Translations under genes and position numbers: made by a program
The notes under the pieces: generated by a model
The model's input: the letters and a program-made list of their open reading frames with translations, nothing else
What the model was told of the DNA's origin: nothing
Databases searched by the model: none
Shown here: piece by piece, positions 1,329 to 63,176 of the stretch
Numbering within the stretch: position 1 is the first letter of the stretch
How the letters are laid out: each line of letters opens with the position of its first letter
NCBI GenBank assembly: GCA_038237165.1
Contig: JBBRYZ010000002.1
Span: forward strand, 9,395-73,394
Direction of reading: 5' to 3'
DNA: 64,000 bases
DNA from: Bacteroidales bacterium
Lineage (GTDB): Bacteria; Bacteroidota; Bacteroidia; Bacteroidales; UBA4417

Positions 1329-2237
1329 ATGCATAATCAATCAAAAGCTTACAGTCTCGCCCTTATTTCAATTGCTTTCTGGTCAACCATGGGCACAGCT
1401 TTTAAGCTTACTCTGAATTATCTGAACCCCGGAATGTTGCTGCTGATAGCTACTTTTACGGCTTTTATTTTTTTGGGTATTGTGGTTTTGATCAAAGGAA
1501 AACTGACTGTACTGAAGAAGATCACAAAGAAACAAATGATCAATTCAGCTCTGATGGGCCTTTTCAATCCTTTTTTGTATTACCTGGTATTATTCGAAGC
1601 TTACAACCGTATTCCTGCACAGGAGGGTGTAGCATTAAACTATATCTGGCCTGTAATTCTTGTAATTTTCTCTATAATCTTTCTGAAACAACATATAAAC
1701 CTGTTGAGTGTGCTGGCAATAATTGTGAGTTTTGCCGGTACAGTTGTAATAGCCATGCATGGGAATTTTACTGAATTCAGATTTTCGAATACAACCGGCG
1801 TTTTGCTTGCCATTGGAAGTGCATTTTTCTGGGCTTCGTTCTGGATCATTAATATGAAAGATCCTCGTGAAGCAATTGTAAAGATGTTTGTCAATTTTGC
1901 GTTTGGAGCAGTCTACATCCTTGCCTGGAATATATACACACACAATATCATCTTACCTCCTGTTTATGGGTTTATTGGCGCTGTGTATATAGGTATTTTC
2001 GAAATGGGGCTAACTTTTGTGTTATGGCTTACTGCGCTCAATTTGTCAACACATACGGCCCGGGTCTCTAACCTGGTATTTATCTCGCCATTTATTTCAC
2101 TGATGCTGGTTTCATTTTTCGTGGGTGAAAAGATTCTTCCGTCAACTGTAATCGGTTTAGCAGTTATAGTTGCCGGGATTGGGATACAACAATACAGCCA
2201 ATGGAGGGAGAAGGGGATAGTGAAAAGTGAAAAGTGA
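1329..2237 (+). CDS. EamA/DMT-family transporter
   Basis: 302 aa, about 10 hydrophobic helices, two-EamA-domain architecture. The C-terminal codons and stop lie in the GTGAAAA heptamer array. Confidence 0.8.
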   Translation: MHNQSKAYSLALISIAFWSTMGTAFKLTLNYLNPGMLLLIATFTAFIFLGIVVLIKGKLTVLKKITKKQMINSALMGLFNPFLYYLVLFEAYNRIPAQEGVALNYIWPVILVIFSIIFLKQHINLLSVLAIIVSFAGTVVIAMHGNFTEFRFSNTTGVLLAIGSAFFWASFWIINMKDPREAIVKMFVNFAFGAVYILAWNIYTHNIILPPVYGFIGAVYIGIFEMGLTFVLWLTALNLSTHTARVSNLVFISPFISLMLVSFFVGEKILPSTVIGLAVIVAGIGIQQYSQWREKGIVKSEK

Positions 2238-2254
2238 AGAGTGAAAAACGAACA
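2220..2254. repeat. heptamer array (GTGAAAA), 5 units
   Basis: gtgaaaa gtgaaaa gtgaaga gtgaaaa acgaaca. It contains the EamA stop codon. Confidence 0.9.
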
Positions 2255-2260
2255 GCTATA

Positions 2261-2624
2261 ATCCTCCTTATATATCAAAAACCTGTAGTTTACGGTCCTT
2301 CTCCTTGAAGAGAAGGTGCCGAAGGCGGATGAGGTGAATAACGATCAGCGATCAGCTAAAATCCTCCTTATATACCAAAAATCTGTAGTTTACGGTCCTT
2401 CTCCTTGAGGAGAAGGTGCCGAAGGCGGATGAGGTGAACAACGACCAGCCAAAATCCACCCTTTATCCCAAAAACCTCTAGTTTACTGTCCTTCTCCTTG
2501 AGGAGAAGGTGCCGAAGGCGGATGAGGTGAACAACGACCAGCTGAAATCCAACCTTTATCCCAAAAACCTCTAGTTTACAGTCCTTCTCCTTGAGGAGAA
2601 GGTGCCGAAGGCGGATGAGGTGAA
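2261..2624. repeat. 4 tandem copies of a 93-100-bp hairpin-containing repeat
   Basis: Copies start at 2261, 2361, 2454 and 2547. Each carries CCTTCTCC-TTGA-GGAGAAGG followed by TGCCGAAGGCGGATGAGGTGAA. Confidence 0.95.
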
Positions 2625-2633
2625 AATAGTCCT

Positions 2634-2675
2634 TTCGATATCCGAAATCATAAATCCCAAATCCGAAATCCGTAC
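2634..2675. repeat. heptamer array (TCCGAAA), 6 units
   Basis: ttcgata tccgaaa tcataaa tcccaaa tccgaaa tccgtac. The array runs into the mtaB -7 box. Confidence 0.9.
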
Positions 2676-2680
2676 CTTTG
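2673..2680 (+). promoter_or_regulatory. -7 box (TACCTTTG) for mtaB
   Basis: TAnnTTTG ending only 4 nt before ATG 2685, which implies a leaderless or near-leaderless mRNA if it is used. Confidence 0.4.
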
Positions 2681-2684
2681 CCCC

Positions 2685-3992
2685 ATGACTTTAAAAAAGC
2701 GCATTGCATTTCATACTTTAGGCTGTAAACTTAATTTTTCCGAGACCAGCACTATTTCGAGGCAATTCGGAATTGAGAATTTTGAAGTGGTTGATTTTGC
2801 CGAACAAGCTGATTTTTATGTAGTTCATACCTGTTCGGTTACTTCGATAGCAGAAAAAAAATGTAAGACTGCCGTTAAACAGGCTCACAAGCGCAATCCT
2901 GATGCACAGGTGGCTGTGATTGGTTGTGCGGTTCAGGCAAACCCCGAAATGTTCAGCAATATGGAAGGTGTTAGCTGGGTGTTTGGGAATGCAGACAAAT
3001 TCAAACTGGGCGAAGTGATCAGTAGCCAGGGTGATGAAAACCATGCTTATGGTCATCACGAATCGTATGTTTCGGAAATAAGTAAAACAAAAGAGTTTAT
3101 TCCGTCATATTCCATGGGTGATCGTACCCGTTCGTTTTTCAAGGTTCAGGACGGATGCGATTATTTCTGTACCTATTGCAGCATTCCGTTTATGCGTGGC
3201 CGAAGCCGAAGCGAAAGCGTTGGAAATACAATAAAAGTTGCCCGTGAAATTGCAGCCACCGAGATTAAAGAAATCATTCTCACCGGAGTTAACATTGGCG
3301 ATTTTGGACAGCAAAATCAAGAATCATTTTTAGACTTGCTGCATCAGCTTGCCATTCTTGATGGAATTGAACGCATCCGTATATCTTCAATTGAGCCAGA
3401 GTTACTCAATAACGAAATTATTGAACTGGTTTCAGTTTCCCAAAAACTGCTTCCTCATTTTCATATTCCGCTTCAAAGCGGCAGCGATAAAATTCTGCAA
3501 CTTATGAAACGTAAATATCTGTGCGAGGTTTTCGCCGGAAGGGTTAAGCGCATAAAGGAGCTGATGCCTGACGCCTGCATTGCGGCTGATGTTATTGTAG
3601 GATTTCCGGGCGAAACGAACGAAGACTTTGACGATGCGTATGAATTTATAAAAAATATGGATATAACTTACCTGCATGTATTTACGTATTCCGAACGACC
3701 CGGCACAAAAGCCCTGGCAATGGAAGGTAAAGTGGATGAACGCGAGAAACGGCGCCGCAGCGTACTTTTGCATGAACTTTCGGAAGCAAAAAAGCAGCAC
3801 TTTTACAACCAGCAAATTGGCAAAACAGCCGATGTATTATGGGAATCGGACAACATTAACGGATTTATGCACGGCTTTACAGGCAATTATGTAAAAGTCC
3901 GGACGCCTTTCGATGCTAAACTAATCAACCATATCCTAAAAGTAAAAATAACCGGCGTAAATGATGATGATACTTGTAGGGTTGAGTTCTGA
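2685..3992 (+). CDS. mtaB: MiaB-like tRNA methylthiotransferase (MtaB type)
   Basis: 435 aa. N-terminal HTLGCKLN MTTase motif and radical-SAM CDYFCTYC cluster motif. Confidence 0.85.
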   Translation: MTLKKRIAFHTLGCKLNFSETSTISRQFGIENFEVVDFAEQADFYVVHTCSVTSIAEKKCKTAVKQAHKRNPDAQVAVIGCAVQANPEMFSNMEGVSWVFGNADKFKLGEVISSQGDENHAYGHHESYVSEISKTKEFIPSYSMGDRTRSFFKVQDGCDYFCTYCSIPFMRGRSRSESVGNTIKVAREIAATEIKEIILTGVNIGDFGQQNQESFLDLLHQLAILDGIERIRISSIEPELLNNEIIELVSVSQKLLPHFHIPLQSGSDKILQLMKRKYLCEVFAGRVKRIKELMPDACIAADVIVGFPGETNEDFDDAYEFIKNMDITYLHVFTYSERPGTKALAMEGKVDEREKRRRSVLLHELSEAKKQHFYNQQIGKTADVLWESDNINGFMHGFTGNYVKVRTPFDAKLINHILKVKITGVNDDDTCRVEF

Positions 3993-4013: not shown

Positions 4014-4156
4014 GAGTTTCAGGTTTACAGAGTTACAGAGTTACACCGTTTCAGAGTTACAGAGTTACAAGGTTACAAGGTTACAGTCCAATTCCGAAAT
4101 CCAAAATCTACAATCCTGCATCCCTAATCCCTAATCCCCAACGCCTAAACCCTCCC
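4014..4156. repeat. octamer lattice (GAGTTACA changing to AATCCCTA), about 18 units
   Basis: 8-nt phase holds from 4014 to 4156, with one 7-nt unit. The lattice covers nearly the whole mtaB-lgt spacer. Confidence 0.9.
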
Positions 4157-4161: not shown

Positions 4162-5337
4162 ATGTTCCCAAAGCTATCCGATCTAATAAACTACATGTTT
4201 GGAAGCCAGATTGACTTACCAATACAGACATATGGTTTTTTCCTGGCTTTTGCTTTTCTTGTCGGAGGAATTGTGCTCAGGAGCGAACTGAAACGAAAGG
4301 AAAAAGAAGGATTACTTAAGCCTCGAAGCCGTACCATTCACCCAAACAAACCAGCCAGCCTGCTCGAAATCATTCCCGGAATAATTTTGTCATCCGTTAT
4401 CGGATGGAAATTTTTTGGAATTATCTTTCAATATCATGAGTTTGCATTAAATCCACAGCATTATATCCTTTCGGGTAAAGGGAGCCTAGCTGCCTTGTTG
4501 GTTATTGCGATAATATCTTTTGCTTATCATTTCTATTCTCTAACTAAAGCGAAAAATAACACACATGATGAGTATGAAGAAATCATACATCCCTATCAGA
4601 ACACATGGAATTTATTGATTGTTGCCATTGTTTCCGCGCTGATTGGCTCTAAACTTTTCGACATTCTTGATAATTTAGGCAGCTTTTTGCACGATCCGGT
4701 TCGCAGTCTGGTTTCATTCAGCGGGTTAACTTTCTACGGAGGCTTTATCGTTACAGTAATTGTTCTGATGCAGTATGTAAAAGTTATAAAACTCGATTGG
4801 AGGCATGTGATCGACAGCGCTGCACCGGTAATTATGATAGGTTATGCCGTGGGAAGGTTAGGCTGTCATTTTTCGGGCGACGGCTGCTGGGGAGTTATTA
4901 ACGCTATGGCACAACCTCACTGGCTTGCCTGGCTTCCCGATTGGCTGTGGTCGTATGATTTCCCGCATAATGTTGCAAATCATGGAATTCCTATTCCCGG
5001 TTGCGTGGGTCAACATTGTATGATCCTTGAAAATCCGGTTTTTCCTACTTCGCTTTATGAATCCATTATTTCGTTCACCTCTTTCGGGATCTTGTGGATT
5101 ATGAGGAGAAAAATAAAAGCACCAGTTGTGCTTTTCGGGCTCTTTATGATTCTGAACGGAGTTGAACGATTTTTCATCGAACATATCCGGATCAACAACA
5201 AATACAACATTCTCGGATTAAATCTTACCCAGGCAGAAATTATTTCAGCTGGATTAATTCTTATTGGAATCGCTGTAATGATTTATTATACAAAACAATA
5301 CAAAACTGGAAAAGTAGAGTTAATGGAAAACAGTTAA
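4162..5337 (+). CDS. lgt: prolipoprotein diacylglyceryl transferase (long Bacteroidota form)
   Basis: 391-aa polytopic membrane protein with Lgt-like FYGGF and GRLGC motifs. The stop codon lies inside a 14-bp repeat. Confidence 0.7.
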   Translation: MFPKLSDLINYMFGSQIDLPIQTYGFFLAFAFLVGGIVLRSELKRKEKEGLLKPRSRTIHPNKPASLLEIIPGIILSSVIGWKFFGIIFQYHEFALNPQHYILSGKGSLAALLVIAIISFAYHFYSLTKAKNNTHDEYEEIIHPYQNTWNLLIVAIVSALIGSKLFDILDNLGSFLHDPVRSLVSFSGLTFYGGFIVTVIVLMQYVKVIKLDWRHVIDSAAPVIMIGYAVGRLGCHFSGDGCWGVINAMAQPHWLAWLPDWLWSYDFPHNVANHGIPIPGCVGQHCMILENPVFPTSLYESIISFTSFGILWIMRRKIKAPVVLFGLFMILNGVERFFIEHIRINNKYNILGLNLTQAEIISAGLILIGIAVMIYYTKQYKTGKVELMENS

Positions 5338-5433
5338 TGGAAAACAGTGGAAACTCTTCAAACCCAAAACAATTGATTGACCACCGAATGACCACCGTAT
5401 GACCATCGTATAACCATCGTATAACCATCGTAT
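5319..5433. repeat. 14-mer (GTTAATGGAAAACA, about 2.5 units) and 11-mer (GACCATCGTAT, 5 units) arrays
   Basis: 14-mers run from 5319 to 5354 and include the lgt TAA stop. 11-mers run from 5379 to 5433 and are the reverse complement of the ATACGATGGTC family at 57138 and 61842. Confidence 0.9.
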
Positions 5434-5482
5434 GACAACCCAATCCACCCATTTATCCCAATCATCTCAAACACCTTAAAAA

Positions 5483-10514: not shown

Positions 10515-11003
10515 TTATTGAGCTTTAATGATTTTAAATGTTTTTATTTCTTTGTTGCCTTCTGTAATTTTTACAAAATACGTTGCAGTTACAAGGTTGC
10601 TCATAGCAACGCTGGTTAAGTTGCTTGTAATCTTTTTGTTTTGCAAAAGTTTCCCATTCATGTCATGCAGTTGATAGCTTAAGTCTTTAAACTTTTCAGT
10701 TTCAACTTTTAACTGCAAAAAATCAAATGTTGGGTTGGGATAAGCTGAAATGGCAAGATTAATCGCAGTTTGTTCAATCCCTGTTACAACCCAAATTTCA
10801 AATGGTTGCTGTACACCTTGTGCCACCGAACCACTTGTTCCGGTATTGGTGGTGTAAACTACCTGTCCAACGGAATAGCTCACCGAGCCTCCGCTACCAG
10901 ATGCATTTCCGCCAGTGACGTTAACGCTTTCCTATGCTTGTAATCCTGTTAGTCCAAGTCCTAACAAGAGTACGGCACTTAATTTTAATCGTTTGTGTCG
11001 CAT
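10515..11003 (-). pseudogene. T9SS C-terminal-sorting-domain cargo protein interrupted by an in-frame TAG
   Basis: ATG 11003 encodes the signal peptide MRHKRLKLSAVLLLGLGLTGLQA. A TAG follows at 10934-10932, and the same frame then continues ESVNVTGGNASGSGG...AYPNPT...FKIIKAQ, which is a Por secretion tail. Confidence 0.6.
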
Positions 11004-13490: not shown

Positions 13491-13532
13491 GAAGACGGAA
13501 GACGGAAGACAGAAGACGGAAAACGGAAGCGA
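13491..13532. repeat. heptamer array (GAAGACG family, 6 units)
   Basis: gaagacg gaagacg gaagaca gaagacg gaaaacg gaagcga. Confidence 0.9.
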
Positions 13533-13790: not shown

Positions 13791-13847
13791 AACAAGAATT
13801 GAAACTTGGAATTTCATTATTCAATATTCATTATTCACTATTTTCAT

Positions 13848-16164: not shown

Positions 16165-16182
16165 TAGTAGATACACAGCATG

Positions 16183-16214
16183 CTGTAGAGACACAACATG
16201 TTGTGTCTCTACAG
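16183..16214. repeat. 32-nt perfect palindrome (terminator-like)
   Basis: CTGTAGAGACACAACATGTTGTGTCTCTACAG, 19 nt after the pepO stop. It overlaps the 12-nt palindrome ACAGCATGCTGT. Confidence 0.9.
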
Positions 16215-16421
16215 TTAGATGTTGGATTTCGGATTGGGGGAAAATTCTCTAATCCGGAATCCGAATTTCACATCCAAAAGTAGATACACAGCATGCTGTG
16301 AATCTACGGTAATATCGGATATTAGTTTTATCCTCAATCCCATCCATCGTTTCAATCTCTTCAAAGTCTGAAACCCTCCGCTTCGGCTCCGCTCAGCGAC
16401 CTGTAACACTGAAACCCAACT

Positions 16422-18241: not shown

Positions 18242-18381
18242 GAAGTCGGAAGACAGAAGTCGGAAGACAGAAGTCGGATTTGGGACGTCAGATTGAGGAA
18301 TGCAGATTGAAATTCTGAAACATGAAACTCTTCAAACATTTCAAGCTCTTCAAACATTTCAAACTCTTCAAACCTTTCAAA
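18242..18381. repeat. heptamer lattice (GAAGTCG/GAAGACA) passing into a 9-mer array (CTCTTCAAA/CATTTCAAA)
   Basis: 7-nt phase holds from 18242 to 18325. Six 9-mers run from 18328 to 18381. The array lies between convergent genes and reaches the stop of the 18377 gene. Confidence 0.9.
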
Positions 18382-19588
18382 CCCCCAATTCCTTCCCCAC
18401 AACATATGCCGTTGAGAATGCCGCCTGCAAATTATACCCGCCGGTATCACCATCGATATCAATTACTTCACCGGCGAAATATAGTCCGGGAACAAGTTTT
18501 GACTCCATGGTCTTTGAATTTACCTCATCCAGGCTCACTCCACCGGCTGTAACCATTGCAGTATTAAATCCACCAACTTTCTCAACCATAAATGGAAATT
18601 CACAAAGCGTTGACACGAGCTGGATTCGTTGATTTTTCTTGATATCAGCAAGCCTCGTTTCTGGTTCAACCTGAATTGATTGCAGAATAATTAATACCAA
18701 GCTCCTGGGCAGATCAAATTTCCTGAGGTAAGTCTGTATGGCTGTTTTACCTTCTTTTTCCGAAGCGCGGATCAGTTCATTTCTGAAATTATCCATGTTC
18801 AGATCGATAAAATTTATTTTTAACATATCACCACTCAGGATATGCCTGGAGAAATCAAGTATTCCCGGTCCGCTCAGTCCTTTGTGGGTAAAGCCGATAT
18901 CGCCGCGATGTTCGCTGATTTTTTTATTTCCACGGTACAAATAGATCATTTTGTCCTGCACCGAAACGCCCGAAATGGAAGCCATACCATAATCACGAAT
19001 AAAAACCGGGCTTAGCGATGGCTTTGGAGGCACAACGGAATGGCCCAATTGTTTTGCAAAATGATACCCGTCACCCGTTGAACCAGTTGCCGGATATGAC
19101 ATTCCACCGGTTGTAATTACAAGAAACCTGGCAGAAAATATAGCCGTATTGGTTTTCACTTCAAAACCATCCTCTGTCTTATTAATTTCGGCAACATGCT
19201 GATTACATGATATCTCGATATTATTTTTCGAACAAACATTTACCAAAACCTGCAATACATCTGCGGCTTTTTGTGATGCCGGAAATACTTTACCGTTTTT
19301 ATCAACCACTGTTTCCATTCCATGATCTTCGAAAAAACGGAGCAGGTCGGTGTTGGTAAAGCTGTGCAAAGCCGTTTTCAGAAACCGCTGGTTATGGCCA
19401 TAGTGACTAAAAAAATTACTTAACTTACAATCGTGTGTAAGGTTGCAGCGGCCAGTGCCTGAAATAAGGAGTTTTTTGCCGGGCGTGGCATTTTTCTCCA
19501 GCACTATAACCTTGCCGCCTTTGCAATGAATGGCTGCAAAAAGGCCGGCAGGTCCTGCCCCAATAATAAGAACATCAGCAGTTTTCAA
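18377..19588 (-). CDS. NAD(P)/FAD-dependent oxidoreductase, HI0933 (BaiN/RdsA) family
   Basis: 403 aa. N-terminal DVLIIGAGPAGLFAA dinucleotide-binding motif and HI0933-like length. Confidence 0.85.
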   Translation of the reverse strand: MKTADVLIIGAGPAGLFAAIHCKGGKVIVLEKNATPGKKLLISGTGRCNLTHDCKLSNFFSHYGHNQRFLKTALHSFTNTDLLRFFEDHGMETVVDKNGKVFPASQKAADVLQVLVNVCSKNNIEISCNQHVAEINKTEDGFEVKTNTAIFSARFLVITTGGMSYPATGSTGDGYHFAKQLGHSVVPPKPSLSPVFIRDYGMASISGVSVQDKMIYLYRGNKKISEHRGDIGFTHKGLSGPGILDFSRHILSGDMLKINFIDLNMDNFRNELIRASEKEGKTAIQTYLRKFDLPRSLVLIILQSIQVEPETRLADIKKNQRIQLVSTLCEFPFMVEKVGGFNTAMVTAGGVSLDEVNSKTMESKLVPGLYFAGEVIDIDGDTGGYNLQAAFSTAYVVGKELGV

Positions 19589-24446: not shown

Positions 24447-24605
24447 CTGTTTTGATCAGGAAAAATAATGTTTATATTTCGATTTTCTTCTATGCTTATT
24501 CAAGGGTTAACCTCTCCTTTCCGCATTCAATTAATTAGTGCTTTACAATAAGGTTTATGTATTTTTTAGTAAAATACCTCAAGTTGAATTTAAAATACCG
24601 AATAC

Positions 24606-27562: not shown

Positions 27563-27625
27563 GGGTTAGGGATGGGGTTTAGGGTTTAGGGTTTGGCACT
27601 TGGTGCTTGGCACTTAGTGCTTTAC
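27563..27625. repeat. heptamer array (GTTTAGG changing to GCTTGGC), 9 units
   Basis: gggttag ggatggg gtttagg gtttagg gtttggc acttggt gcttggc acttagt gctttac. The array starts 11 nt upstream of the amylase ATG. Confidence 0.9.
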
Positions 27626-27853: not shown

Positions 27854-27916
27854 ACTCTTCTAACATTTCAAACTCTTCAATCCCATCAATCCCTTCAATC
27901 TCATCAATCCCTTCAA
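27854..27916. repeat. 9-mer array (ACTCTTCAA/TCCCTTCAA), 7 units
   Basis: The array ends 9 nt from the stop codon of the 27925 gene. Confidence 0.9.
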
Positions 27917-27924
27917 TCCTGAAT

Positions 27925-31286: not shown

Positions 31287-31913
31287 ATGAAAAAAGCAAT
31301 ACTGTTCCTTATCCTGATTATACCGGTTGTACTTTCAGCGCAATCATGGAAATCGAATCCCATCGCCATAAGCGTGTTCAACAATGCCACTATGTTGCCA
31401 CCGGCCTCTCTTACTGCGACATTTAACCAGCCCTTGCATCCTGGGTTAACCGCATCCTACGAATTCGGCTGGAAGGAAACGACAAACCACAAATGGTTTC
31501 AGAATGCCGGCATCAGCTATATGTACCACCAGTTTGTGTACCAGGCCATACTGCTTAATTCGCAGGCCGGATATCGTTGGAAACTAAGCAGGTTTTCAAT
31601 CGAAGGATACTTGCAGGCCGGATATATGCACGCTTTTCTGCTTACAGATCGGGCAGTATTGCAGTCGGATGGAACTTATAAAGCAAAAAAAGGTTTTGGG
31701 AAACCACAGTTTATTGCAGGTGCCGGTGCCGGATTAGGTTATAACTTTGGAAACGAATCAACGCTGCGGCGAATCTTTATCAATTATGACATCCGCCTTC
31801 AGATGCCTTTTGTAAAGAGTTATGTAACACTATTGCCAAATGGCGCCTTGTCCGTAGGAATGCAGTTTACGCTTAGCCGTGTGGCGGATAAGGGAGATTG
31901 CAGTCCGTATTAA
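31287..31913 (+). CDS. hypothetical secreted / outer-membrane beta-barrel-like protein
   Basis: Signal peptide MKKAILFLILIIPVVLSAQ and an aromatic-rich alternating pattern. No family was recognised. Confidence 0.4.
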   Translation: MKKAILFLILIIPVVLSAQSWKSNPIAISVFNNATMLPPASLTATFNQPLHPGLTASYEFGWKETTNHKWFQNAGISYMYHQFVYQAILLNSQAGYRWKLSRFSIEGYLQAGYMHAFLLTDRAVLQSDGTYKAKKGFGKPQFIAGAGAGLGYNFGNESTLRRIFINYDIRLQMPFVKSYVTLLPNGALSVGMQFTLSRVADKGDCSPY

Positions 31914-31962
31914 AAAGTGAAGAGTGAAAAGTGAAAAACGTAAAACGAAAAGTGAATAATAC
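31914..31962. repeat. heptamer array (AAAGTGA family), 7 units
   Basis: The array begins at the nucleotide immediately after the TAA stop at 31911-31913. Confidence 0.9.
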
Positions 31963-32086
31963 CAATCAAGGGTTGAATTTGTAACTTATTAATTGCCAGG
32001 CGAACTTTTCAAGAGTTTAAAACTCCGGAAAAGTTTAACGCCTAAATAGACGAATCATTAATTCAACACTCGATTCGCATGAATAA
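31953..32086. mobile_element. MITE-like 134-bp element, copy 2
   Basis: Aligns with 24606-24739 at roughly 75-80 percent identity by eye. It is flanked on both sides by GTGAA-type heptamers. Confidence 0.55.
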
Positions 32087-32111
32087 TGAATAACGAAAAG
32101 TGAATCACAAA
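32077..32111. repeat. heptamer array (TAATGAA/AAGTGAA), 5 units
   Basis: gcatgaa taatgaa taacgaa aagtgaa tcacaaa. Confidence 0.8.
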
Positions 32112-39850: not shown

Positions 39851-39960
39851 TATTTAGTACTTGGTGCCTGGTACTTGGTGTCTGGTGCCTGGTGTCTTGT
39901 GCTTGGTGCTTGGTGCTTGGTACTATTCACTATTCACTATGCACTATGCGCTATGCGCTA
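39851..39960. repeat. 16-unit phase-locked heptamer array inside the hdr/flx operon
   Basis: tatttag tacttgg tgcctgg tacttgg tgtctgg tgcctgg tgtcttg tgcttgg x3 tactatt cactatt cactatg x2 cgctatg cgcta. The last unit contains the flxB-like stop codon. Confidence 0.95.
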
Positions 39961-40995
39961 CGCACTTAAAATTACCTGACTACCTATTTCACTCAAATGC
40001 TCCTTAATATTCATATCCACCGGGCAGGCTCTTGAACATCGTCCGCAGCCTTCGCAACCTACAACATGAAGTTGTTCTGGCATGTAAGCAAACTTATGCA
40101 TGATGCGTTGGCGCCAGCGTTGGCTTTGAACTTCCCTTGGATTGTGACCGGAGGTATGTAACGTGAACAGCGAAAATCCACATGAATCCCAAAGACGGAG
40201 ACGTACTCCTTTTTTGGTGTTCTGCTCATCCTGAAAATCGAAACAGGCACAGGTAGGGCAAACAAAAGCACATGCCCCGCAACCAATGCATCGGAGAGAT
40301 TGCTCAAGCCATAAAGCTGCATTATTAAAGGAAGCGGTTGTATTTTTAACTACCGAATTCACATCAAATACAACTTTTACATCGGCAAGAAATTTACTCT
40401 TATCAATGTCGCTTTTTGCATCGGTGAGAAGATCTGTGAAAACAGTTGCCAGCTTAATGCCTTTTTCGGTAAGGATTTCAACAAGAATTTCATCTTTGCT
40501 GATTCCTGTAAACTGAAGGTCGCTGCCCGCCGTATTGCCCGGTCCGCCGCCCACTGAAGTGCAGAAACAATATTCATCAGCCGTAGGGCAGGAAAAAGAA
40601 ATAATAGTGGTCTTCTCCTTTTTCTTCAAATATAGTTCATCCTTGGGAGTATCACCAAAAATGGCATCAAGCGATTTAAAACCGGAAGCGTCACAGGGTC
40701 TTACTCCGAAAAGAATCGTTTCCTTACAAGTTTCCGGATCAACAGGTGTTTGTTTTACATCTGATTTGCCGAAGGTAAAATCAAGCACTTTTTCCACTTT
40801 AGGAAAAGCTGCTTTCTTAGCCGACTGCGTTGACAATAATGCATCAAGTGCAACATCTTCGAGCGATTCAACCAATTCTATCTCCACGACCTTATCTTTG
40901 CGGACAGGCGCCAGCACAGGATACCCCTGCGAGCGAAACCTTTCAATAAGTTTTGGCAGATCGGTGTATTTCAGTATTTTAAGTTCTTTCTCCAT
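39958..40995 (-). CDS. flxB: 4Fe-4S dicluster protein (FlxB / AsrA / HydB-like)
   Basis: 345 aa. CIGCGACAFVCPTC and CEGCGRCSRACP ferredoxin motifs. Confidence 0.65.
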   Translation of the reverse strand: MEKELKILKYTDLPKLIERFRSQGYPVLAPVRKDKVVEIELVESLEDVALDALLSTQSAKKAAFPKVEKVLDFTFGKSDVKQTPVDPETCKETILFGVRPCDASGFKSLDAIFGDTPKDELYLKKKEKTTIISFSCPTADEYCFCTSVGGGPGNTAGSDLQFTGISKDEILVEILTEKGIKLATVFTDLLTDAKSDIDKSKFLADVKVVFDVNSVVKNTTASFNNAALWLEQSLRCIGCGACAFVCPTCACFDFQDEQNTKKGVRLRLWDSCGFSLFTLHTSGHNPREVQSQRWRQRIMHKFAYMPEQLHVVGCEGCGRCSRACPVDMNIKEHLSEIGSQVILSA

Positions 40996-40998
40996 GGG

Positions 40999-42253: not shown

Positions 42254-42265
42254 TCTATTCTGCTA

Positions 42266-44266: not shown

Positions 44267-44268
44267 GT

Positions 44269-49522: not shown

Positions 49523-49694
49523 GCAGTTAATGGTTAATGGAAAATGGAAAATGGTTAACATTAATTTATTCAGGAATTCAAAAAACATTTAACATTAAAC
49601 ACAAAACATTTAACACTTAACAGCACTCCATGCACTAAGCACCACACACCACTCAAAGCACTTTTACCTCTAATTTTAAAACTCAATCAACCCC
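49523..49694. repeat. heptamer lattice filling the whole spacer from stop to start (about 24 units)
   Basis: gcagtta atggtta atggaaa atggaaa atggtta ... then 11 consecutive units beginning with C (caaaaaa catttaa cattaaa cacaaaa catttaa cacttaa cagcact ccatgca ctaagca ccacaca ccactca). Confidence 0.9.
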
Positions 49695-52127: not shown

Positions 52128-52239
52128 ACCTGAAAGGTATTTCGTCAGAGCAACTTTACAAGCTGATCTATGCTTTATCAAACAGATTGAAAATTTGATA
52201 ATTGCAATATCAGGTCTGCAAACCAATCCTCTTTTCACG

Positions 52240-52247
52240 TACCTTTG
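52240..52247 (+). promoter_or_regulatory. -7 box (TACCTTTG) for prfA
   Basis: TAnnTTTG 24 nt upstream of ATG 52271. It lies inside the longer ORF-track start. Confidence 0.5.
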
Positions 52248-52270
52248 CACCCGCAAAATCAATTACCCAT

Positions 52271-53660: not shown

Positions 53661-53690
53661 CTATGCACCAAGCACCTAGCACCAAATCCT
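53661..53690. repeat. heptamer array (CCAAGCA family) abutting the pyrF ATG
   Basis: ctatgca ccaagca cctagca ccaaatc. The unit is the reverse complement of the TGCTTGG family at 27598 and 39900. Confidence 0.75.
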
Positions 53691-55712: not shown

Positions 55713-55833
55713 ATTGCTACTTTCGGATTTAAATCAAATGGTTTAAATATGAAAACAGGCACAATTTATCGCCCTTCTCCGAAAAAAGAAAATATTCCTG
55801 TTTCCTACTCCAGGAAAGCAAAAAGTCCTATTT

Positions 55834-55876
55834 CCTTCTCCTCTCAGGAGAAGGTGCCCGAAGGGCGGATGAGGTG
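55834..55876. repeat. solo copy of the hairpin + GGATGAGGTGA repeat
   Basis: CCTTCTCC-tctca-GGAGAAGG TGCCCGAAGGGCGGATGAGGTGA, the same core as the four tandem copies at 2261-2624. Confidence 0.85.
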
Positions 55877-55899
55877 AGAAGTGAAATGGGATGAGGTCA

Positions 55900-55933
55900 A
55901 AAAAAACGCCGGAATGATTCCGGCGTTTTTTTA
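55900..55933. terminator. bidirectional rho-independent terminator
   Basis: A-run, CGCCGGAA-tga-TTCCGGCG, then T7. It sits between convergent genes. Confidence 0.8.
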
Positions 55934-57137: not shown

Positions 57138-57270
57138 TGGTCATACGATAGTCATACGATAGCCATTCATTGGTCATACGATAGTCTTACAATGGTCAGT
57201 CGATAGTTATGCGATGGTCATTCAATCTCTTCAAACTCTTCAAAACCTTCAAAACCTACAAAACCATAAA
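57138..57270. repeat. 11-mer array (TGGTCATACGA/TAGTCATACGA, 8 units) followed by a 9-mer array (ACTCTTCAA, 5 units)
   Basis: 11-nt phase from 57138 to 57225, with a 22-bp super-period. 9-nt phase from 57226 to 57270. Confidence 0.9.
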
Positions 57271-57300
57271 ACTGTCACACTGAGCGTAGTCGAAGTGCCA

Positions 57301-57399
57301 AAATCTGTAAACATTTCAAACCCTTCTAACTCCTCAAACCCTTCAATCTCTTCAAACATTTCAAACTCGTCAAACATTTCAGACTCATCAAACCATTAT
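57301..57399. repeat. 9-mer array (AACATTTCA/AACCCTTCA), 11 units
   Basis: It is separated from the preceding 9-mer array by a 30-bp insert, ACTGTCACACTGAGCGTAGTCGAAGTGCC, which breaks the phase. Confidence 0.9.
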
Positions 57400-57468
57400 T
57401 AAACCTACACCCACCTTTCCCGCAAGGTGCCAAATTGACAGTCCCTACCCCATGGCACATGCTTTGAT

Positions 57469-57476
57469 TAACTTTG
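57469..57476 (+). promoter_or_regulatory. -7 box (TAACTTTG) for htpG
   Basis: TAnnTTTG 28 nt upstream of ATG 57504. Confidence 0.5.
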
Positions 57477-57503
57477 GAAAAGAAAATATAAAATAGATAA
57501 ACT

Positions 57504-59414: not shown

Positions 59415-59575
59415 AAAGACGGAAGTCCGAAGACGGAAGTTCGAAGACGAAAGGTAGTAGTAGAACATAGAATTCGGAAGACAGAAGCAGGTAGTCGAAG
59501 TTATGAATATGTAATTAGCACTTCCGACTCCGGTCTTCGGACTTCCTACCTTTTCACACCAATTACAATTTAAAA
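59415..59575. repeat. heptamer lattice (GAAGACG/GAAGTCC family) with an internal inverted segment
   Basis: 7-nt phase begins at the nucleotide after the htpG stop. The 14-bp perfect inverted repeat 59421-59434 / 59533-59546 can form a long hairpin. Confidence 0.9.
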
Positions 59576-60955: not shown

Positions 60956-61003
60956 TCATCCATTTTCAGGAACATGCAACTAACTCAATTTAATACTCCG
61001 CTC

Positions 61004-61804
61004 ATGAAATCCGGAAATTCGTTTAAAACCTTACTCCTTTTTGCCATTCTACTGCTGCAATCCGGATTAATTTTTGCCCAGGGCATTCCAGCCAGGCCAG
61101 ATCCTCCGCGCCTGGTTAACGATTTTGCAAATATTCTGAGCCCGGATCAGTTGCAAAGCCTTGAATCAAAGTTGGTGGCATTTAATGATTCCACTTCTGT
61201 TCAGATAGCAATTGTTATTGTACCCACACTCGACGGTTACGAAAAGGCTGACTACGCCCAGCAACTCGGGCAAAAATGGGGTGTTGGCGGAAGTAAATTC
61301 AATAATGGTTTCGTAGTACTAATCAAACCTAAAAGCGGATCCGAAAATGGTGAAGCTTTTATTGCAACCGGCTATGGGGTTGAGCAATTTGTTCCTGATG
61401 CTACCTCATATGATATTGTTAACAACGAAATGATCCCCCGTTTCAAACAGAATGATTATTACGGAGGTATTGATGCTGCTACGAATGTTATTATGTCGCT
61501 GGTAAAAGGCGAGTTTAAGGCCGAAGCTTACTCAAAAAAGAAGAAAGGTTCACCGGTAGGCATAATCGTTATTATCATTATTGTTATAATTTTTCTCATT
61601 TCAAGAAACAATAAAAACGGTGGTCGTACCATCAACCATTCAGGTTCTGCGGGTATGTTGTTGTTCCCATGGTTGATGGGTGGCGGCGGAGGTGGAGGTT
61701 TTGGCGGAGGTGGCGGCGGCGGTTTTGGCGGCGGCGGAGGCGGCGGTTTCGGTGGCTTCGGAGGCGGTGGCTTTGGAGGCGGAGGCGCAGGCGGAAGCTG
61801 GTAG
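61004..61804 (+). CDS. TPM-domain protein, YgcG-like, with a TM helix and Gly/Phe-rich tail
   Basis: Signal peptide, TPM domain (VNDFANILS...IAIVIVPTL), a TM helix and a C-terminal GGGGGGFGGGGGGGFGG... tail. Confidence 0.8.
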   Translation: MKSGNSFKTLLLFAILLLQSGLIFAQGIPARPDPPRLVNDFANILSPDQLQSLESKLVAFNDSTSVQIAIVIVPTLDGYEKADYAQQLGQKWGVGGSKFNNGFVVLIKPKSGSENGEAFIATGYGVEQFVPDATSYDIVNNEMIPRFKQNDYYGGIDAATNVIMSLVKGEFKAEAYSKKKKGSPVGIIVIIIIVIIFLISRNNKNGGRTINHSGSAGMLLFPWLMGGGGGGGFGGGGGGGFGGGGGGGFGGFGGGGFGGGGAGGSW

Positions 61805-61807
61805 GAT

Positions 61808-61995
61808 GAGAAATAGTTAATGGAAAATAGTTGACAGAAAATAGTCATACAATGGTCATGCGATAGTCATACGATTGTCGAAAGATGGTCATAGATTGTC
61901 ATGCGATGGTTAAATAATAGTCATTCGATGGTCGTAAAGTGGTTTCATCTAACTTTTCAAAATCATGAGACTCTTCAAACATTTCAAACTCTAAG
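61808..61995. repeat. 14/11-mer array (AAAATAGTTAATGG, then TGGTCATGCGA/TAGTCATACGA) followed by 9-mers
   Basis: About 10 units in approximately 11-nt phase (one 10-nt unit) from 61842 to 61950. GACTCTTCA AACATTTCA from 61969. The unit families are the same as at 57138-57399 and (in reverse complement) 5379-5433. Confidence 0.9.
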
Positions 61996-62117
61996 CTAAA
62001 GGGAAAATACTGAAGAGAATCTTACTTAGTGCTTTCTCCCCTATTCATGCTGAGAGGAGTCGTAGCATCAGGACGAGTCCGAGACCAGGCCACAGCCTTC
62101 AAAATAAATAAAAACCG

Positions 62118-62125
62118 TACTTTTG
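62118..62125 (+). promoter_or_regulatory. -7 box (TACTTTTG)
   Basis: TAnnTTTG 45 nt upstream of ATG 62170. Confidence 0.45.
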
Positions 62126-62169
62126 CCCTTTCCTAAACAAATAACTGATTTTATATCATATTACACATT

Positions 62170-63084
62170 ATGTCAGATCATACATTGAATTTCGGACTTA
62201 TTGGTGCAGGAGGGTATATCGCCCCCAGGCATATGAAAGCGATTAAAGAAACCGGCAATATACTCGTGGCAGCCCTCGACCGCTATGATGGCGTAGGAAT
62301 CATGGACAGCTATTTCCCGGATGCCAGTTTCTTTACGGAGCCTGAACGATTCGACCGGCACCTGGATAAACTCCGCCGAAAAGGTACTGGGTTTAAAATT
62401 GATTATGTTAGCATCTGTTCGCCAAATTACCTTCACGATGCCCATATGAGGCTGGCTTTGCGCAGCGATGCACATGCAATTTGTGAAAAACCGCTGGTTC
62501 TCAACCCATGGAATCTGGACGCACTTACCGAACTGGAACAGGAAACCGGTAAACGGATCTATACCATACTTCAACTCAGGCTGCATCCTGCTATTATCGC
62601 TTTGCGCGATAAAATAGCCAATGGTCCGGCAGGAAAAGTTTATGATGTAAAACTTAAATACATTACAAGCCGAGGCAAATGGTATCATATTTCCTGGAAA
62701 GGCGACCTGGCTCATTCAGGTGGAATTGCTACCAATATTGGCATTCATTTTTTTGATATGCTTACCTGGATTTTCGGTGATGTGAAAGAAAACAAATTGC
62801 ATTTACATGAAAGCGACCAGGCAGCCGGCTTCCTTGGCCTTGAGAAAGCCAATGTTGACTGGCATCTCAGCATAAATGCCGATCACCTGCCTGCATTTAC
62901 AAAGGAATCAGGTAAACGCACCTACCGTTCAATTACGGTTGATGGAGAAGAAGTTGAATTCAGTGAGGGATTTACCGATCTGCATACCCGCAGCTATGAA
63001 CAAATACTCGCCGGAAATGGTTTCGGACTTGAAGATGCCAGAAAAAGCATCATCATAGCACAGGGAATTAGGAAACAGATTTGA
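62170..63084 (+). CDS. Gfo/Idh/MocA-family oxidoreductase (WbpB-like sugar-nucleotide dehydrogenase)
   Basis: 304 aa. N-terminal Rossmann motif FGLIGAGGYIAPRHMKAI. It neighbours gmd, suggesting a glycan-synthesis context. Confidence 0.75.
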   Translation: MSDHTLNFGLIGAGGYIAPRHMKAIKETGNILVAALDRYDGVGIMDSYFPDASFFTEPERFDRHLDKLRRKGTGFKIDYVSICSPNYLHDAHMRLALRSDAHAICEKPLVLNPWNLDALTELEQETGKRIYTILQLRLHPAIIALRDKIANGPAGKVYDVKLKYITSRGKWYHISWKGDLAHSGGIATNIGIHFFDMLTWIFGDVKENKLHLHESDQAAGFLGLEKANVDWHLSINADHLPAFTKESGKRTYRSITVDGEEVEFSEGFTDLHTRSYEQILAGNGFGLEDARKSIIIAQGIRKQI

Positions 63085-63176
63085 AGGGTTTGAAGAGTTT
63101 CAGGGTTTCAGAGTTTCAGTTGCTAATTTTAAGTAAAACTTTTCAAACCTTCGGACGTGGATTGTTCAAACCCTTC
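63083..63176. repeat. inverted 8/9-mer arrays (GGGTTTGAA... / ...TTCAAACCC)
   Basis: The 12-bp perfect inverted repeat 63083-63094 / 63165-63176. The left arm includes the TGA stop of the Gfo gene. Confidence 0.8.

Follow-up and report, generated by a model that had tools for sequence, protein, structure and literature searches.

The window analyzed here is a 64-kb stretch of a MAG of an uncultured member of the Lentimicrobiaceae (Bacteroidales), and it was examined together with about 20 kb from each relative. Its genes are separated by spacers, many of which carry short tandem repeats. An earlier note had listed such arrays at 17 places; TRF gave matches for all 17, displaced by no more than a few bases, with the periods of 7, 8, 9, 11, and 14 bp named there and with additional multi-unit periods of 16-24. 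The features are given below, with no strand assigned unless + is indicated and with the source of detection in brackets.

2219..2254, GTGAAAA heptamers, about 5 units (TRF, sequence); the + strand is C-poor, and the TGA stop of the EamA-family gene 1329-2237 (Pfam) is part of the third unit.
2634..2675, CGAAATC/CCAAATC heptamers, about 5 units, G-poor (TRF, sequence); stops 9 nt short of the ATG at 2685.
4014..4086, GAGTTACA octamers, 9 units, period 24 as well (TRF); begins 21 nt past the stop of gene 2685-3992 and folds more poorly than shuffles (z +1.8).
4087..4156, CCGAAAT to CCCTAAT heptamers, about 9 units (TRF); G 4%, C 43%, with 5 nt between its end and the ATG at 4162.
5318..5348, GTTAATGGAAAACA, 2.2 copies, 100% match (TRF, Pfam); the lgt gene 4162-5337 has its TAA stop inside this array.
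5378..5440, TGACCACCGTA 11-mers, 5.7 copies (TRF, sequence); reverse complement of the GGTCATACGAT family.
13491..13532, GAAGACG heptamers, about 6 units, divergent spacer (TRF).
13813..13842, TTCATTA heptamers, 4.3 copies, without G (TRF; outside the earlier list).
16214..16300, + strand, GGATTTC/GGATTGG units, then inverted AATCCGG/AATCCGA units (outside the earlier list).
18242..18278, GAAGTCGGAAGACA, 2.6 copies (TRF); 55 nt past the stop of a LytTR regulator gene.
18325..18382, CTCTTCAAACATTTCAAA 18-mers, 3.2 copies, 9-mer family TTCAAACNN (TRF); adjoins the stop of gene 18377-19588 (minus strand), along whose sense strand it reads GTTTGAAG.
27563..27625, GGGTTTA-type heptamers with G-runs, then TTGGCAC/TTAGTGC heptamers (TRF, sequence); 10 nt upstream of the start of an amylase gene on the minus strand, and therefore G-poor on the sense strand of that gene.
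27854..27919, CTCTTCAAA/TCAATCCCA 9-mers, about 7 units, + strand without G (TRF); 5 nt past the stop of gene 27925-28647 (minus strand).
31913..31962, GTGAAAA heptamers, about 6-7 units (TRF); begins at the next base past the stop of gene 31281-31913.
32077..32111, ATGAATA/GTGAATC heptamers, weak (TRF, score 33).
39851..39966, 16 heptamers in a single phase (TRF), changing from CTTGGTG-type to CTATGCA-type at unit 11 with the phase kept; flanked by a pyrK-like start and the stop of 39958-40995, both minus strand.
49523..49665, three successive arrays in the OmpA-family/purM spacer (TRF): GTTAATG/GAAAATG heptamers starting one base past the OmpA-family stop, AACATTT heptamers, and GCACYAA heptamers towards the purM ATG.
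53661..53690, GCACCAA heptamers, 3-4 units, adjoining the pyrF ATG (TRF, weak score).
57138..57273, GGTCATACGAT 11-mers (7.5 copies), then CTCTTCAAA/CTTCAAAAC 9-mers (about 5 units), in the divergent aminotransferase-htpG spacer (TRF).
57274..57300, + strand, GC hairpin element (CACACTGAGCGTAGTCGAAGTG), single copy amid 9-mer arrays.
57301..57399, TTCAAACNN 9-mers, about 11 units, G 3% (TRF); its end lies 104 nt before the htpG ATG, and a conserved promoter-proximal block follows downstream of it.
59415..59575, + strand, GGAAGAC/GGAAGTC heptamers, then their inverted complement (CTTCCGACTCCGGTCTTCGGACTTCC), then TTTTC (TRF); the heptamers begin one base past the htpG stop, and the whole forms a long hairpin.
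61808..61995, three arrays, GTTAATGGAAAATA-type units, GGTCATACGAT 11-mers (8.5 copies, one indel), and CTCTTCAAACATTTCAAA (TRF); follows the stop of a TPM-domain gene.
63083..63176, + strand, GAAGGGTTTGAAGAGTTTCAGGGTTTCAG, then inverted TTCAAACCCTTC, hairpin-forming (TRF); begins at the stop of gene 62170-63084.

The arrays are almost confined to the non-coding DNA that separates distinct transcription units, and the genes flanking them are ordinary housekeeping genes. With genes defined as ORFs of at least 120 aa and arrays as TRF hits of period 5-24 with at least 3 copies and a score of at least 40, 17 non-coding arrays were found to occupy 1,051 bp, which is 9.2% of the 11,413 non-coding bases in the window. 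The corresponding share of coding DNA was 0.28%, nearly all of it from a single Gly-rich coding repeat (61682-61794). Across 100 dinucleotide-preserving shuffles of the spacers, none contained more than 1 array and the mean was 0.02. The arrays described in the earlier note are real.

Arrays were present in 13-15 of the 41 spacers of at least 60 bp. The former count of 17 out of about 40 spacers was too high, as the 17 intervals fall in 14 spacers. In five of the listed intervals (49523-49694, 57138-57399, 59415-59575, 61808-61995, and 63083-63176) separate arrays are joined by non-repetitive linkers. The arrays at 32077-32111 and 53661-53690 scored no more than 33-35 in TRF and are weak. As for unbroken in-phase runs, the longest one found has 16 heptamers (39853-39966) and not 24 units. 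Arrays lying directly past a stop codon (31914, 49523, and 59415) or 0-10 nt from a start codon (2675, 4156, 53690, and 27563) were found as described. In two arrays the stop codon itself is supplied by the array (2235-2237 and 5335-5337).

The same unit families were found at unlinked loci and in both orientations, as previously claimed, both by sequence matches and by unit dimers that recur on both strands. The best match between spacers was 18328-18374 against 57348-57394 (47 bp, 91% identity). Matches of 22-30 bp with 90-100% identity link the spacers at 13.5, 18.2, 27.9, 57.1, and 61.9 kb, and one more (26 bp, 92%) links those at 4.1 and 18.2 kb. Similarity between spacers was restricted to the repeat units and reached at most 51 bp. 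The two-unit block CTCTTCAAACATTTCAAA (an 18-mer) was found at four unlinked loci and GGTCATACGAT at three loci in the window, and the latter was absent from the orthologous spacers of the relatives L081, L083, and L207. Judged from these sequences, identical 9-18-mers at unlinked spacers would require some copying between loci. To that extent there is something in the suggested "ongoing templated process".

The kept phase had been taken as an argument against slippage. Multi-unit periods (14, 18, and 22) were found to fit the arrays better than the base period: 18242-18278 matches 100% at period 14 vs. 73% at period 7, and 18325-18382 matches 92% at period 18 vs. 76% at period 9. Indels are nearly lacking within arrays, and the one in 61842-61940 breaks the phase. 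The better fit of multi-unit periods is the expected product of whole-unit slippage, so that selection on periodicity is unnecessary. The short units are duplicated and lost as whole units and as blocks of units; such gain and loss keeps the phase, creates multi-unit periods, and changes array length and unit variants between close relatives.

Comparison of orthologous spacers, as proposed previously, showed that relatives carry arrays in the same spacers with a different copy number and sometimes a different unit family. The length of the aminotransferase-htpG spacer varies between 334 bp (L083) and 685 bp (L081), the window having 497 bp; its flanks are conserved, the array blocks differ, and unit families are replaced wholesale. 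Heptamer counts past the htpG stop rise from about 4 (L081) through about 5.6 (window) and 6-7 (L206) to at least 12 (L207). Such numbers may be wrong where they come from short-read assemblies, since contigs of L082, L085, and L207 break off within arrays. The left hairpin arm at 59415..59575 is variable in copy number among relatives. L001 and L002, with HtpG 89-91% identical, have merely about 50 bp past the htpG stop. Upstream of pyrF, the GCACCAA family occupies the same position in L081 and L083. In the OmpA-purM spacer the first two arrays are about 88% identical to L081 compared to about 60% at four-fold degenerate sites, although conservation within arrays may be overestimated, since units of one family align well in whatever register.

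The array-bearing spacers also have a polarity, which the earlier note had missed. In 14 of 15 such spacers the 5' half is G-rich and the 3' half is G-poor (C-rich) on each strand (p = 0.001); the same order was seen in 15 of 22 array-free spacers, which is not significant. The G-poor strand is the one running 5' to 3' into the nearest gene, and under this rule every spacer reads G-rich and then G-poor on both strands. We extended the analysis to metagenomic contigs regardless of taxon. The rule was obeyed by 43 of 47 non-coding arrays of the TTCAAAC family, or 41 of 45 clusters after removal of redundancy. Upstream of start codons 17 were sense and 2 antisense, whereas downstream of stop codons 2 were sense and 26 antisense (Fisher p = 9e-9 across both positions). 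For all other arrays the strand into the gene was G-poor in 109 cases vs. C-poor in 59 (p = 1.4e-4), the rule being weak downstream of stop codons (52 vs. 34, p = 0.07).

Repeats of this class are already known from cyanobacteria, Xanthomonas, and a few Bacteroidetes, the orientation rule included. The cyanobacterial STRR heptamers, named earlier as the closest analogue, are an apt comparison: the present arrays are intergenic, heptamer-dominated, and made up of several dispersed unit families. Most units here are 7 bp, with 8, 9, and 11 bp also found, and heptamers make up 37 of the 68 gene-proximal arrays in the window and related loci. The G-rich/G-poor orientation rule is shared with the GGGAATC/GGGGATT heptamers of Xanthomonas and Nostoc, for which it has been published (PMC4692102). 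The belief that such repeats were undescribed in Bacteroidota does not hold. TAACTGA arrays occur in five Bacteroidetes, some with other heptamer direct repeats beside them, and in F. litoralis they show this kind of orientation bias as well (MacGregor, 2015; PMC4679880). A 2025 survey reported a high STR density in Bacteroidota (PMC12699852). The arrays described here are fast-evolving intergenic repeats of the STRR/long-SSR type, carried by the genome of an uncultured member of the Lentimicrobiaceae.

Altogether, we favor, with a probability of roughly 0.6, an explanation in which slippage and exchange between arrays are filtered by orientation-dependent selection. Arrays would be generated by replication slippage and unequal exchange. 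Ectopic recombination or template switching, with other arrays serving as homology, would carry blocks from one array to another and so give the small recurring vocabulary of units. The orientation rule would result from selection: G-poor sequence before a start codon may provide an unstructured leader free of spurious start codons and SD-like sequence, suited to Bacteroidota-type translation initiation, and G-poor, C-rich RNA running from the spacer interior towards the gene may be a good Rho substrate. A leader-based explanation fails to cover several G-poor arrays, since those of htpG, lemA, and the 62170 gene lie upstream of a likely -7 promoter motif and not in the 5' UTR. A minority of arrays may have been co-opted: inverted pairs may supply both arms of a terminator-like hairpin, and some arrays in leaders or past stop codons may be conserved past neutral expectation. 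Co-option is indicated by hairpins at 59412-59560 (z -4.0), 63080-63200 (z -3.2), and 61802-61950 (z -3.1) and by the identity to L081 in the OmpA-purM spacer.

A possible but considerably less probable reading is that the arrays are maintained functional modules that make each spacer a two-sided transcriptional insulator. Outgoing RNA would be G-rich first and either fold into one arm of a hairpin or stay paired with DNA in a stable hybrid; gene-bound RNA, being C-rich, G-poor, and unstructured, would let Rho load and so kill spurious or antisense transcripts, or else be a leader serving Bacteroidota-type translation initiation. Recognition by a protein (Rho, S1, an RRM, or a cold-shock protein) would be what makes the unit families persist. 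This agrees with the very strong TTCAAAC polarity irrespective of gene orientation, the composition of start-adjacent arrays (G 0-4%, C 30-43%), the conservation of some arrays well past four-fold sites, the family consensus kept across species despite turnover, the matching polarity in other phyla, and the candidate RNA-binding proteins put forward for TAACTGA. However, many orthologous spacers of related species (L001 and L002) function without an array, families are replaced wholesale at one site, distribution over Bacteroidales loci is sporadic, the likely promoter often lies downstream of the array, and Rehm et al. sought a regulatory role and found none.

It is improbable that the composite blocks are non-autonomous mobile elements inserting into intergenic DNA, despite a Bacteroidales precedent in BrickBuilt of Porphyromonas gingivalis, a MITE with an internal minisatellite (PMC4596501). 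The same families recur partly in the same order (GTTAATGGAAAA, GGTCATACGAT, CTCTTCAAA) at several loci, window arrays are missing from the orthologous site of relatives, and GC hairpin elements are embedded within arrays. However, neither a leader, a tail, nor a terminal inverted repeat is common to the spacers, the blocks are shuffled in order and orientation from locus to locus, left and right arrays are mostly not complementary, arrays change gradually in place between species, and no transposase, reverse transcriptase, or integrase genes were found in the 64 kb.

Still less probable is selection on periodicity itself, through DNA curvature, binding of nucleoid or other proteins to DNA, or RNA structure. 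In-phase runs are long, up to 16 units, and a few array pairs form strong hairpins. However, five periods are in use, the period may change within a single spacer (8 to 7, 11 to 9), and the phase is already explained by whole-unit slippage. Curvature seems unlikely, since periods of 7-9 bp would not keep pace with the helical repeat and A-tracts are lacking in the 11-mer. RNA structure, a role suggested before, was not found as a general array property: the mean z was -1.03 for array spacers vs. -1.35 for array-free spacers, and several array spacers fold more poorly than shuffles.

We dismiss as very improbable that low-complexity sequence arising by chance, or artefacts of assembly, could account for the arrays: contigs of relatives often end in arrays, but shuffles yield practically none, independent ENA and JGI assemblies from different samples recovered the same arrays, a 2.65-Mb contig of a related species has arrays in the same spacers, and position and family are conserved across species.

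In L081 the GC hairpin element CACACTGAGCGTAGTCGAAGTG belongs to a 48-bp unit repeated six times. The units at 16214..16300 form a near-perfect hairpin nested amid other palindromes, and are G-rich and then C-rich, as in the array spacers.

Tandem Repeats Finder and a direct reading of the sequence agree that short-period arrays are present at all the places that the earlier note had listed. Its 17 intervals hold as places but fall in 14 spacers rather than in about 17. Several of them are not single arrays but two to three different arrays chained by non-repetitive linkers, and two of the listed arrays are weak. Phase had been described as kept for up to 24 units, while the longest single-phase run was found to be 16 heptamers (39853-39966). 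The units are arranged head-to-tail without spacers, with periods from 7 to 24. The commonest period in the window is 7. Of 68 gene-proximal arrays from the window and related loci, period 7 accounts for 37, and period 14 or 21 for another 8.

For the census, genes were defined as ORFs of at least 120 aa picked greedily by length (coding share of the window 82%), and arrays as repeats of period 5-24 with at least three copies. Arrays made up 1,051 of 11,413 non-coding bases in the window (9.2%), compared to 148 of about 52,600 coding bases (0.28%), the latter being mostly one Gly-rich coding repeat (61682-61794). We found 17 non-coding arrays, whereas 100 dinucleotide-preserving shuffles of every spacer gave a mean of 0.02 and never more than one. 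Two of the checks proposed in the earlier note, intergenic enrichment (here within the window) and shuffled spacers as a source of comparable runs, came out in favor of the arrays. They are not assembly artefacts: independent ENA and JGI assemblies agree, and a 2.65-Mb contig of a relative, ctg82119l of ENA ERZ21831265, carries arrays in the same spacers. The protein encoded by the minus-strand gene at 8852-10411 has collagen triple-helix repeats and a C-terminal Lcl domain; the 54-bp and 9-bp periodicity of this gene's DNA (9834-9972) is a coding repeat unconnected with the intergenic arrays.

The nearest relatives of HtpG (57504-59414) were uncultured Lentimicrobiaceae MAGs (89-91% amino-acid identity), with about 72% identity to Lentimicrobium-labelled MAGs. 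A type IX secretion sorting domain at 10515-10883 is consistent with Bacteroidota. All 50 ORFs scanned against Pfam were ordinary chromosomal genes or had no match; they include purM, pyrF, a prfB-like gene, lgt, an Hdr/Mvh-like operon, transporters and peptidases, and no transposase, integrase or reverse transcriptase was found among them. Arrays are located between transcription units, with none in the tightly packed operon at 39958-45764, and the genes that they flank are housekeeping genes such as htpG, pyrF, purM and lgt. The sole Rfam match in the window at gathering score was a tRNA-Gly (26140-26211), and no array was matched. Considering spacers of at least 100 bp between co-directional genes in the window, arrays were present in 9/14 on the plus strand and 2/12 on the minus strand. 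This imbalance concerns small numbers and may reflect an influence of strand or replichore, or differences between regions. The stop codons of the EamA transporter gene (2235-2237) and of lgt (5335-5337) lie within heptamer and 14-mer arrays, and slippage there would alter the C-termini of both proteins.

The arrays have a polarity relative to the neighboring genes. In the window, arrays that directly follow a stop codon have little C on their sense strand (e.g., GTGAAAA, GAAGACG, GTTAATGGAAAA, GTTTGAAG), and those right before a start codon are G-poor (e.g., CTCTTCAAA, CCCTAAT, GCACCAA, AAACCCT). A spacer is thus G-rich and then G-poor on each strand, and the strand entering the nearest gene is G-poor. 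A single metagenome scan for three TTCAAACNN units, the 9-mer referred to here as the TTCAAAC family, gave 80 loci on taxonomically unassigned contigs; none of them overlaps the window, and they add no orthologous spacers. From these we took the 47 arrays that were non-coding and at most 150 nt from an ORF.

Orientation of arrays and spacers relative to the nearest gene.
Window, array-bearing spacers: 14/15 obey the rule; left half +0.16, right half -0.31; p=0.001
Window, array-free spacers: 15/22; difference 0.05; not significant
Metagenome TTCAAAC arrays, start-proximal: sense 17, antisense 2
Metagenome TTCAAAC arrays, stop-proximal: sense 2, antisense 26
All other arrays, all fetched loci: G-poor 109 vs C-poor 59; p=1.4e-4

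The polarity amounts to about -0.4, compared to a weak background skew of -0.08. The rule was obeyed by 43/47 metagenome arrays (Fisher p=9e-9) and by 41/45 non-redundant clusters. For arrays outside the TTCAAAC family it was clear at starts (57 vs 25) and weak at stops (52 vs 34). On viral contigs the majority of arrays with the TTCAAAC pattern (34/49) were coding repeats, and of the 13 non-coding ones 9 followed the rule and 4 did not (not significant). One array-bearing spacer of the window breaks the polarity. It separates pyrD from a divergent Fib_succ_major-domain gene, is 625 bp long and carries a longer-period array (37429-37556, the 22-bp unit AAGCATCGCTTTTAAAAAACAT about 5.9 times).

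In many spacers the left array is not complementary to the right one, and only about one in three such spacers folds significantly better than shuffles, so that a palindromic footprint alone does not account for the polarity. Repeated GGG runs were found at 27563-27594 alone, most families (GTTTGAAG, GAAGACG, GTGAAAA, GGTCATACGAT) having none, so that the arrays do not fit the subclass treated by Rehm et al. (2015), in which the unit forms G-quadruplexes from at least four G-tracts. Since the rule holds for units without G-runs, quadruplex formation cannot be its cause. The sequence at 27563-27594 (GGGTTAGGGATGGGGTTTAGGGTTTAGGGTTT) is a plant-telomere-like TTTAGGG run with G-quadruplex potential on the plus strand; it is located 10 nt upstream of a minus-strand amylase start, so that the sense strand is the C-rich one.

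We retrieved the same chromosomal neighborhood from six relatives for comparison with the window.

Related loci with the htpG neighborhood, compared to the window.
L206: htpG 93.7% nucleotide identity
L207: htpG 90.4% nucleotide identity
L081, L083, L085: genes 84-90% identical; four-fold degenerate sites about 60%
L259: HtpG 89% identical; from the 2.65-Mb contig
L001, L002: HtpG 89-91% identical; genes 74-84% nucleotide identity

Orthologous spacers of L081, L083, L206, L207 and L259 carry arrays at the same intergenic location, with variable length and sequence. In the divergent spacer between the aminotransferase gene and htpG both flanks and a promoter-proximal block are kept, and the middle is specific to each genome.

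Middle of the aminotransferase-htpG spacer.
Window: GGTCATACGAT 7.5 times, followed by 9-mers of the TTCAAAC type that surround a single hairpin element
L081: GGGTTTCGGGTTTGAAG six times, then a 48-bp higher-order unit six times
L083, L207: one to two units of each

Unit number varies among the relatives, a point that the earlier note had proposed to check by aligning orthologous spacers. Directly after the htpG stop codon the window has about 5.6 GGAAGAC/GGAAGTC heptamers. There are about 4 of them in L081 and 6-7 in L206, and L207 has at least 12, its contig breaking off within the array. L259 has eight GGATGTT-type units at this position, and the spacer of L001 and L002 is just about 50 bp long. 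Other stretches are conserved locally. Over the first two arrays of the OmpA-purM spacer, the window and L081 share about 88% identity and an uninterrupted identical stretch of 34 bases, compared to about 60% identity at four-fold sites of the flanking genes, and the GCACCAA array adjoining the pyrF start was found in all three species compared (window, L081, L083).

Multi-unit periods fit some arrays better than the base period. The match for the array at 18242-18278 is 100% at period 14 vs 73% at period 7, and for that at 18325-18382 it is 92% at period 18 vs 76% at period 9. Indels within arrays are rare, with one case in 61842-61940. Together these features are what slippage or unequal exchange would leave behind if whole units and blocks are gained and lost. 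The kept phase had earlier been taken as an argument for selection on periodicity; given the multi-unit periods and the gain and loss of whole units, slippage suffices and such selection is not needed. Reading the arrays by eye revealed no consistent gradient of the kind expected from polar growth, with the newest units proximal to the gene.

Sharing of unit families between unlinked loci, and in both orientations, was confirmed. An all-against-all comparison gave matches of 22-47 bp with 90-100% identity between spacers tens of kb apart, and the named units were found repeatedly as dimers, on the plus as well as the minus strand. The block CTCTTCAAACATTTCAAA is present at 18.3, 27.9, 57.3 and 62.0 kb. 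Chance convergence cannot account for identical 9-18-mers at several loci. The unit GGTCATACGAT is found at three window loci and is absent from the two orthologous spacers inspected in L081, L083 and L207, and has therefore spread or been lost since close species split from one another. The vocabulary is common to the closest relatives, and hardly any of it overlaps with that of more distant loci. A defined mobile element is unlikely, since there are no common flanks or inverted ends and the order and orientation of blocks differ between loci. We infer that arrays are copied from one another by ectopic recombination or template switching, with other arrays serving as homology.

Intergenic arrays of the heptamer class have been known since 1990. 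The canonical STRR1-3 units of heterocystous cyanobacteria are CCCCAGT, TTGGTCA and CAACAGT; no dimers of these with up to one mismatch were found in the window, the host being a member of the Bacteroidales. The analogy to cyanobacterial STRRs drawn in the earlier note is apt at the level of the class, though not of the units: both comprise several heptamer families, tandem in non-coding DNA at many loci per genome and without explained function, but the phylum differs and the window also uses 8-, 9- and 11-bp units. STRR heptamers have been reported for Calothrix PCC 7601, as cited by Rehm et al. (2015; PMC4692102).

The same paper describes heptamer SSRs in Xanthomonas (GGGAATC) and Nostoc PCC 7120 (GGGGA(T/C)T), located antisense within 50 bp upstream of an ORF or sense within 50 bp after a stop codon, so that the nearest ORF is on the 5' side of the repeat irrespective of its orientation. 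Most of these arrays are transcribed, no regulatory role was found, and they occupy the same gene intervals in related species with variable length and sequence (Rehm et al., 2015). The window arrays resemble them in being dispersed over the genome, strongly intergenic, arranged in inverted pairs and next to ordinary genes, with no function found, and in having the G-rich strand sense after a stop and antisense before a start. They differ in phylum, in having many unit families and periods (7, 8, 9, 11) instead of one motif, and in that most units lack G-runs; GGGAATC is absent among them.

That such repeats were undescribed in Bacteroidota, as the earlier note supposed, does not hold. MacGregor (2015; PMC4679880) reported TAACTGA arrays in Beggiatoaceae, cyanobacteria and five Bacteroidetes, with other heptamer arrays in the same Bacteroidetes spacers and shorter, repeat-free spacers in close relatives. 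Of the 14 sets in Flexibacter litoralis, 12 have forward orientation and precede a start by 1-43 nt, and one, in reverse orientation, directly follows a stop. The window arrays share the heptamers beside start and stop codons and a similar orientation bias, but have at least ten families rather than one privileged heptamer, and no TAACTGA dimer with up to one mismatch was found in the window. An excess of long SSRs with 5-11 nt units, heptamers being commonest, was described by Mrazek et al. (2007), with polymerase slippage as the proposed cause, as summarized in PMC4679880 and PMC4692102. Exceeding chance length and a scattered phylogenetic distribution are common to both sets; in these summaries Bacteroidota are not named among the richest, and polarity and shared vocabularies are not addressed. 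In a 2025 survey of STRs, Bacteroidota are one of the prokaryotic phyla listed for their high density (PMC12699852). The BrickBuilt MITE of Porphyromonas gingivalis (PMC4596501) is likewise strictly intergenic, multi-copy and from a Bacteroidales host, but there the tandem array, a 23-nt minisatellite, is internal to a dispersed element with leader, tail and inverted-repeat ends. The window spacers match one another in repeat units alone (up to 51 bp), without leader, tail, terminal inverted repeats or common flanks, and an element of this type was rejected. So was a CRISPR array, as the units of period 7-24 are head-to-tail without unique spacers, and so were contingency (phase-variation) SSRs, the flanking genes being housekeeping and the arrays lying outside the candidate -33/-7 core, though two overlap stop codons.

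The window arrays show the excess over composition, prevalence of heptamers, non-coding bias, orientation rule (weak at stops outside the TTCAAAC family) and shared location of the heptamer-class long SSRs. They are of this long-SSR/STRR kind and outside the named families TAACTGA, STRR1-3, GGGAATC and BrickBuilt. The feature is real, striking and well delimited, and belongs to a known but still unexplained class. It adds a well-resolved example with many unit families and periods from a Bacteroidales lineage (Lentimicrobiaceae) previously without a described case. It also gives evidence that the published orientation rule applies in Bacteroidota and to units unable to form G-quadruplexes, and places orthologous spacers of six related genomes side by side, with rapid turnover and local conservation both visible.

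The arrays are non-random, non-coding and polar, and they evolve in whole units; their location is kept across relatives, their content changes and their vocabulary is shared within the lineage. We favor, with a probability of about 0.6, a composite explanation in which slippage and exchange between arrays would generate and spread them, and selection would remove those that put G-rich sequence on the strand entering a gene. G-poor sequence ahead of a start would offer no AUG, GUG or UUG, no SD-like runs and little structure. Translation initiation in Bacteroidota is SD-independent, which a G-poor leader fits. For arrays upstream of a promoter or beyond a stop the leader argument fails, and a reason at the level of transcription is needed. 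A candidate would be Rho, with C-rich, G-poor transcripts directed towards the gene as its substrate; alternatively, mutational bias might be responsible.

That the arrays constitute a functional insulator or leader module we consider improbable. Somewhat further down we place the broader proposal that heptamer-class arrays across phyla are two-sided insulators independent of sequence family, with polarity as their point and vocabularies kept uniform by dedicated copying. RNA made towards the gene would then be G-poor, C-rich and unstructured, and could be read by Rho or another single-strand RNA binder, with the RNA leaving the gene as its G-rich partner. If so, the window would be a clear Bacteroidota example in which G-quadruplexes are not required. 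The remaining readings deserve little weight. Should the polarity prove functional, it would point to a widespread and cheap insulation of bacterial transcription units. Even if it is not, the arrays are a practical nuisance, as contigs break in them, and a source of strain markers in Bacteroidota metagenomes.

The -7 promoter motif of Bacteroidota is TAnnTTTG. A strict scan for it gave few sites, located mostly between an array and the ATG, and the arrays lie outside the candidate -33/-7 core. A generic scan of the window returned 42 promoter-like sites vs 39.9 expected, using a sigma-70 consensus that is inapplicable to Bacteroidota, and 21 terminator-like sites vs 17.4 expected. A few array pairs form the arms of a hairpin, as at 59412-59560, where TTTTC comes next and the element is also kept in L081, L083 and L085. 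Hairpins as a general property of arrays were rejected on the folding of spacers compared to mononucleotide shuffles. A convergent, array-free spacer contains a bidirectional intrinsic terminator of textbook type (55900-55932, AAAAAAACGCCGGAAT-GATTCCGGCGTTTTTTT); ordinary terminators hence coexist with array-built hairpins.

Further repeats and structured elements of the window.
57280-57295, 16381-16396 (minus), 62050-62065: GC hairpin motif CTGAGCG-AG-CGAAG (reverse complement CCCTTCGACTCCGCTCAGGG); 3 observed vs 0.19 expected
16165-16421: spacer between M13 peptidase and histidine kinase genes, with the strongest folding of all window spacers (-90.5 kcal/mol, z -7.9 to -10)
2241-2624: 93-bp unit, 4.1 copies, 88% match; each copy a GC hairpin CCTTCTCCTTGAGGAGAAGG, then GCCGAAGGCGGATGAGGTGAA
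53275-53596: 157-bp tandem duplication, 2.1 copies, 96%
24686-24736 and 32033-32083: dispersed 51-bp repeat, 88% identity, including hairpin AACTTTTCAAGAGTTTAAAACTCCGGAAAAGTT
24447-24917: strongly structured spacer, z -5.3
57418-57503: upstream of htpG, inverted repeat GTGCCAAATTGACAGTCCC(N7-8)CATGGCAC, then GCTTTGAT and an A-rich leader

The GC hairpin motif is at the center of many array-bearing spacers and at many metagenome loci. It forms part of the 48-bp unit repeated six times in L081 (9580-9860), and is present also in the distant Bacteroidota loci L013, L015 and L058. The spacer at 16165-16421 contains nested near-perfect palindromes, one of them built from inverted GGATTTC/AATCCGA heptamers, and a minus-strand copy of the hairpin motif CTGAGCGGAGCCGAAG; a permissive Rfam scan of it gave sub-threshold matches to miRNA-like hairpins and none above threshold. 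The repeat at 2241-2624 is flanked by GTGAAAA and CGAAATC arrays, a 45-bp piece of it recurs at 55833-55877, and it looks like a REP-like hairpin element that was tandemly amplified. The 157-bp duplication comprises the 3'-terminal 67 nt of a release-factor gene (52202-53341) together with downstream sequence. It is absent in L081 and L083, where the spacers are 183 bp and 134 bp, compared to 349 bp in the window. The inverted repeat upstream of htpG might serve as an operator for heat shock, as a promoter or as an RNA thermometer. Its right arm and core are kept in L001, L002, L081, L083 and L206, and its left arm has one change in L001, the HtpG of which is 91% identical to that of the window.
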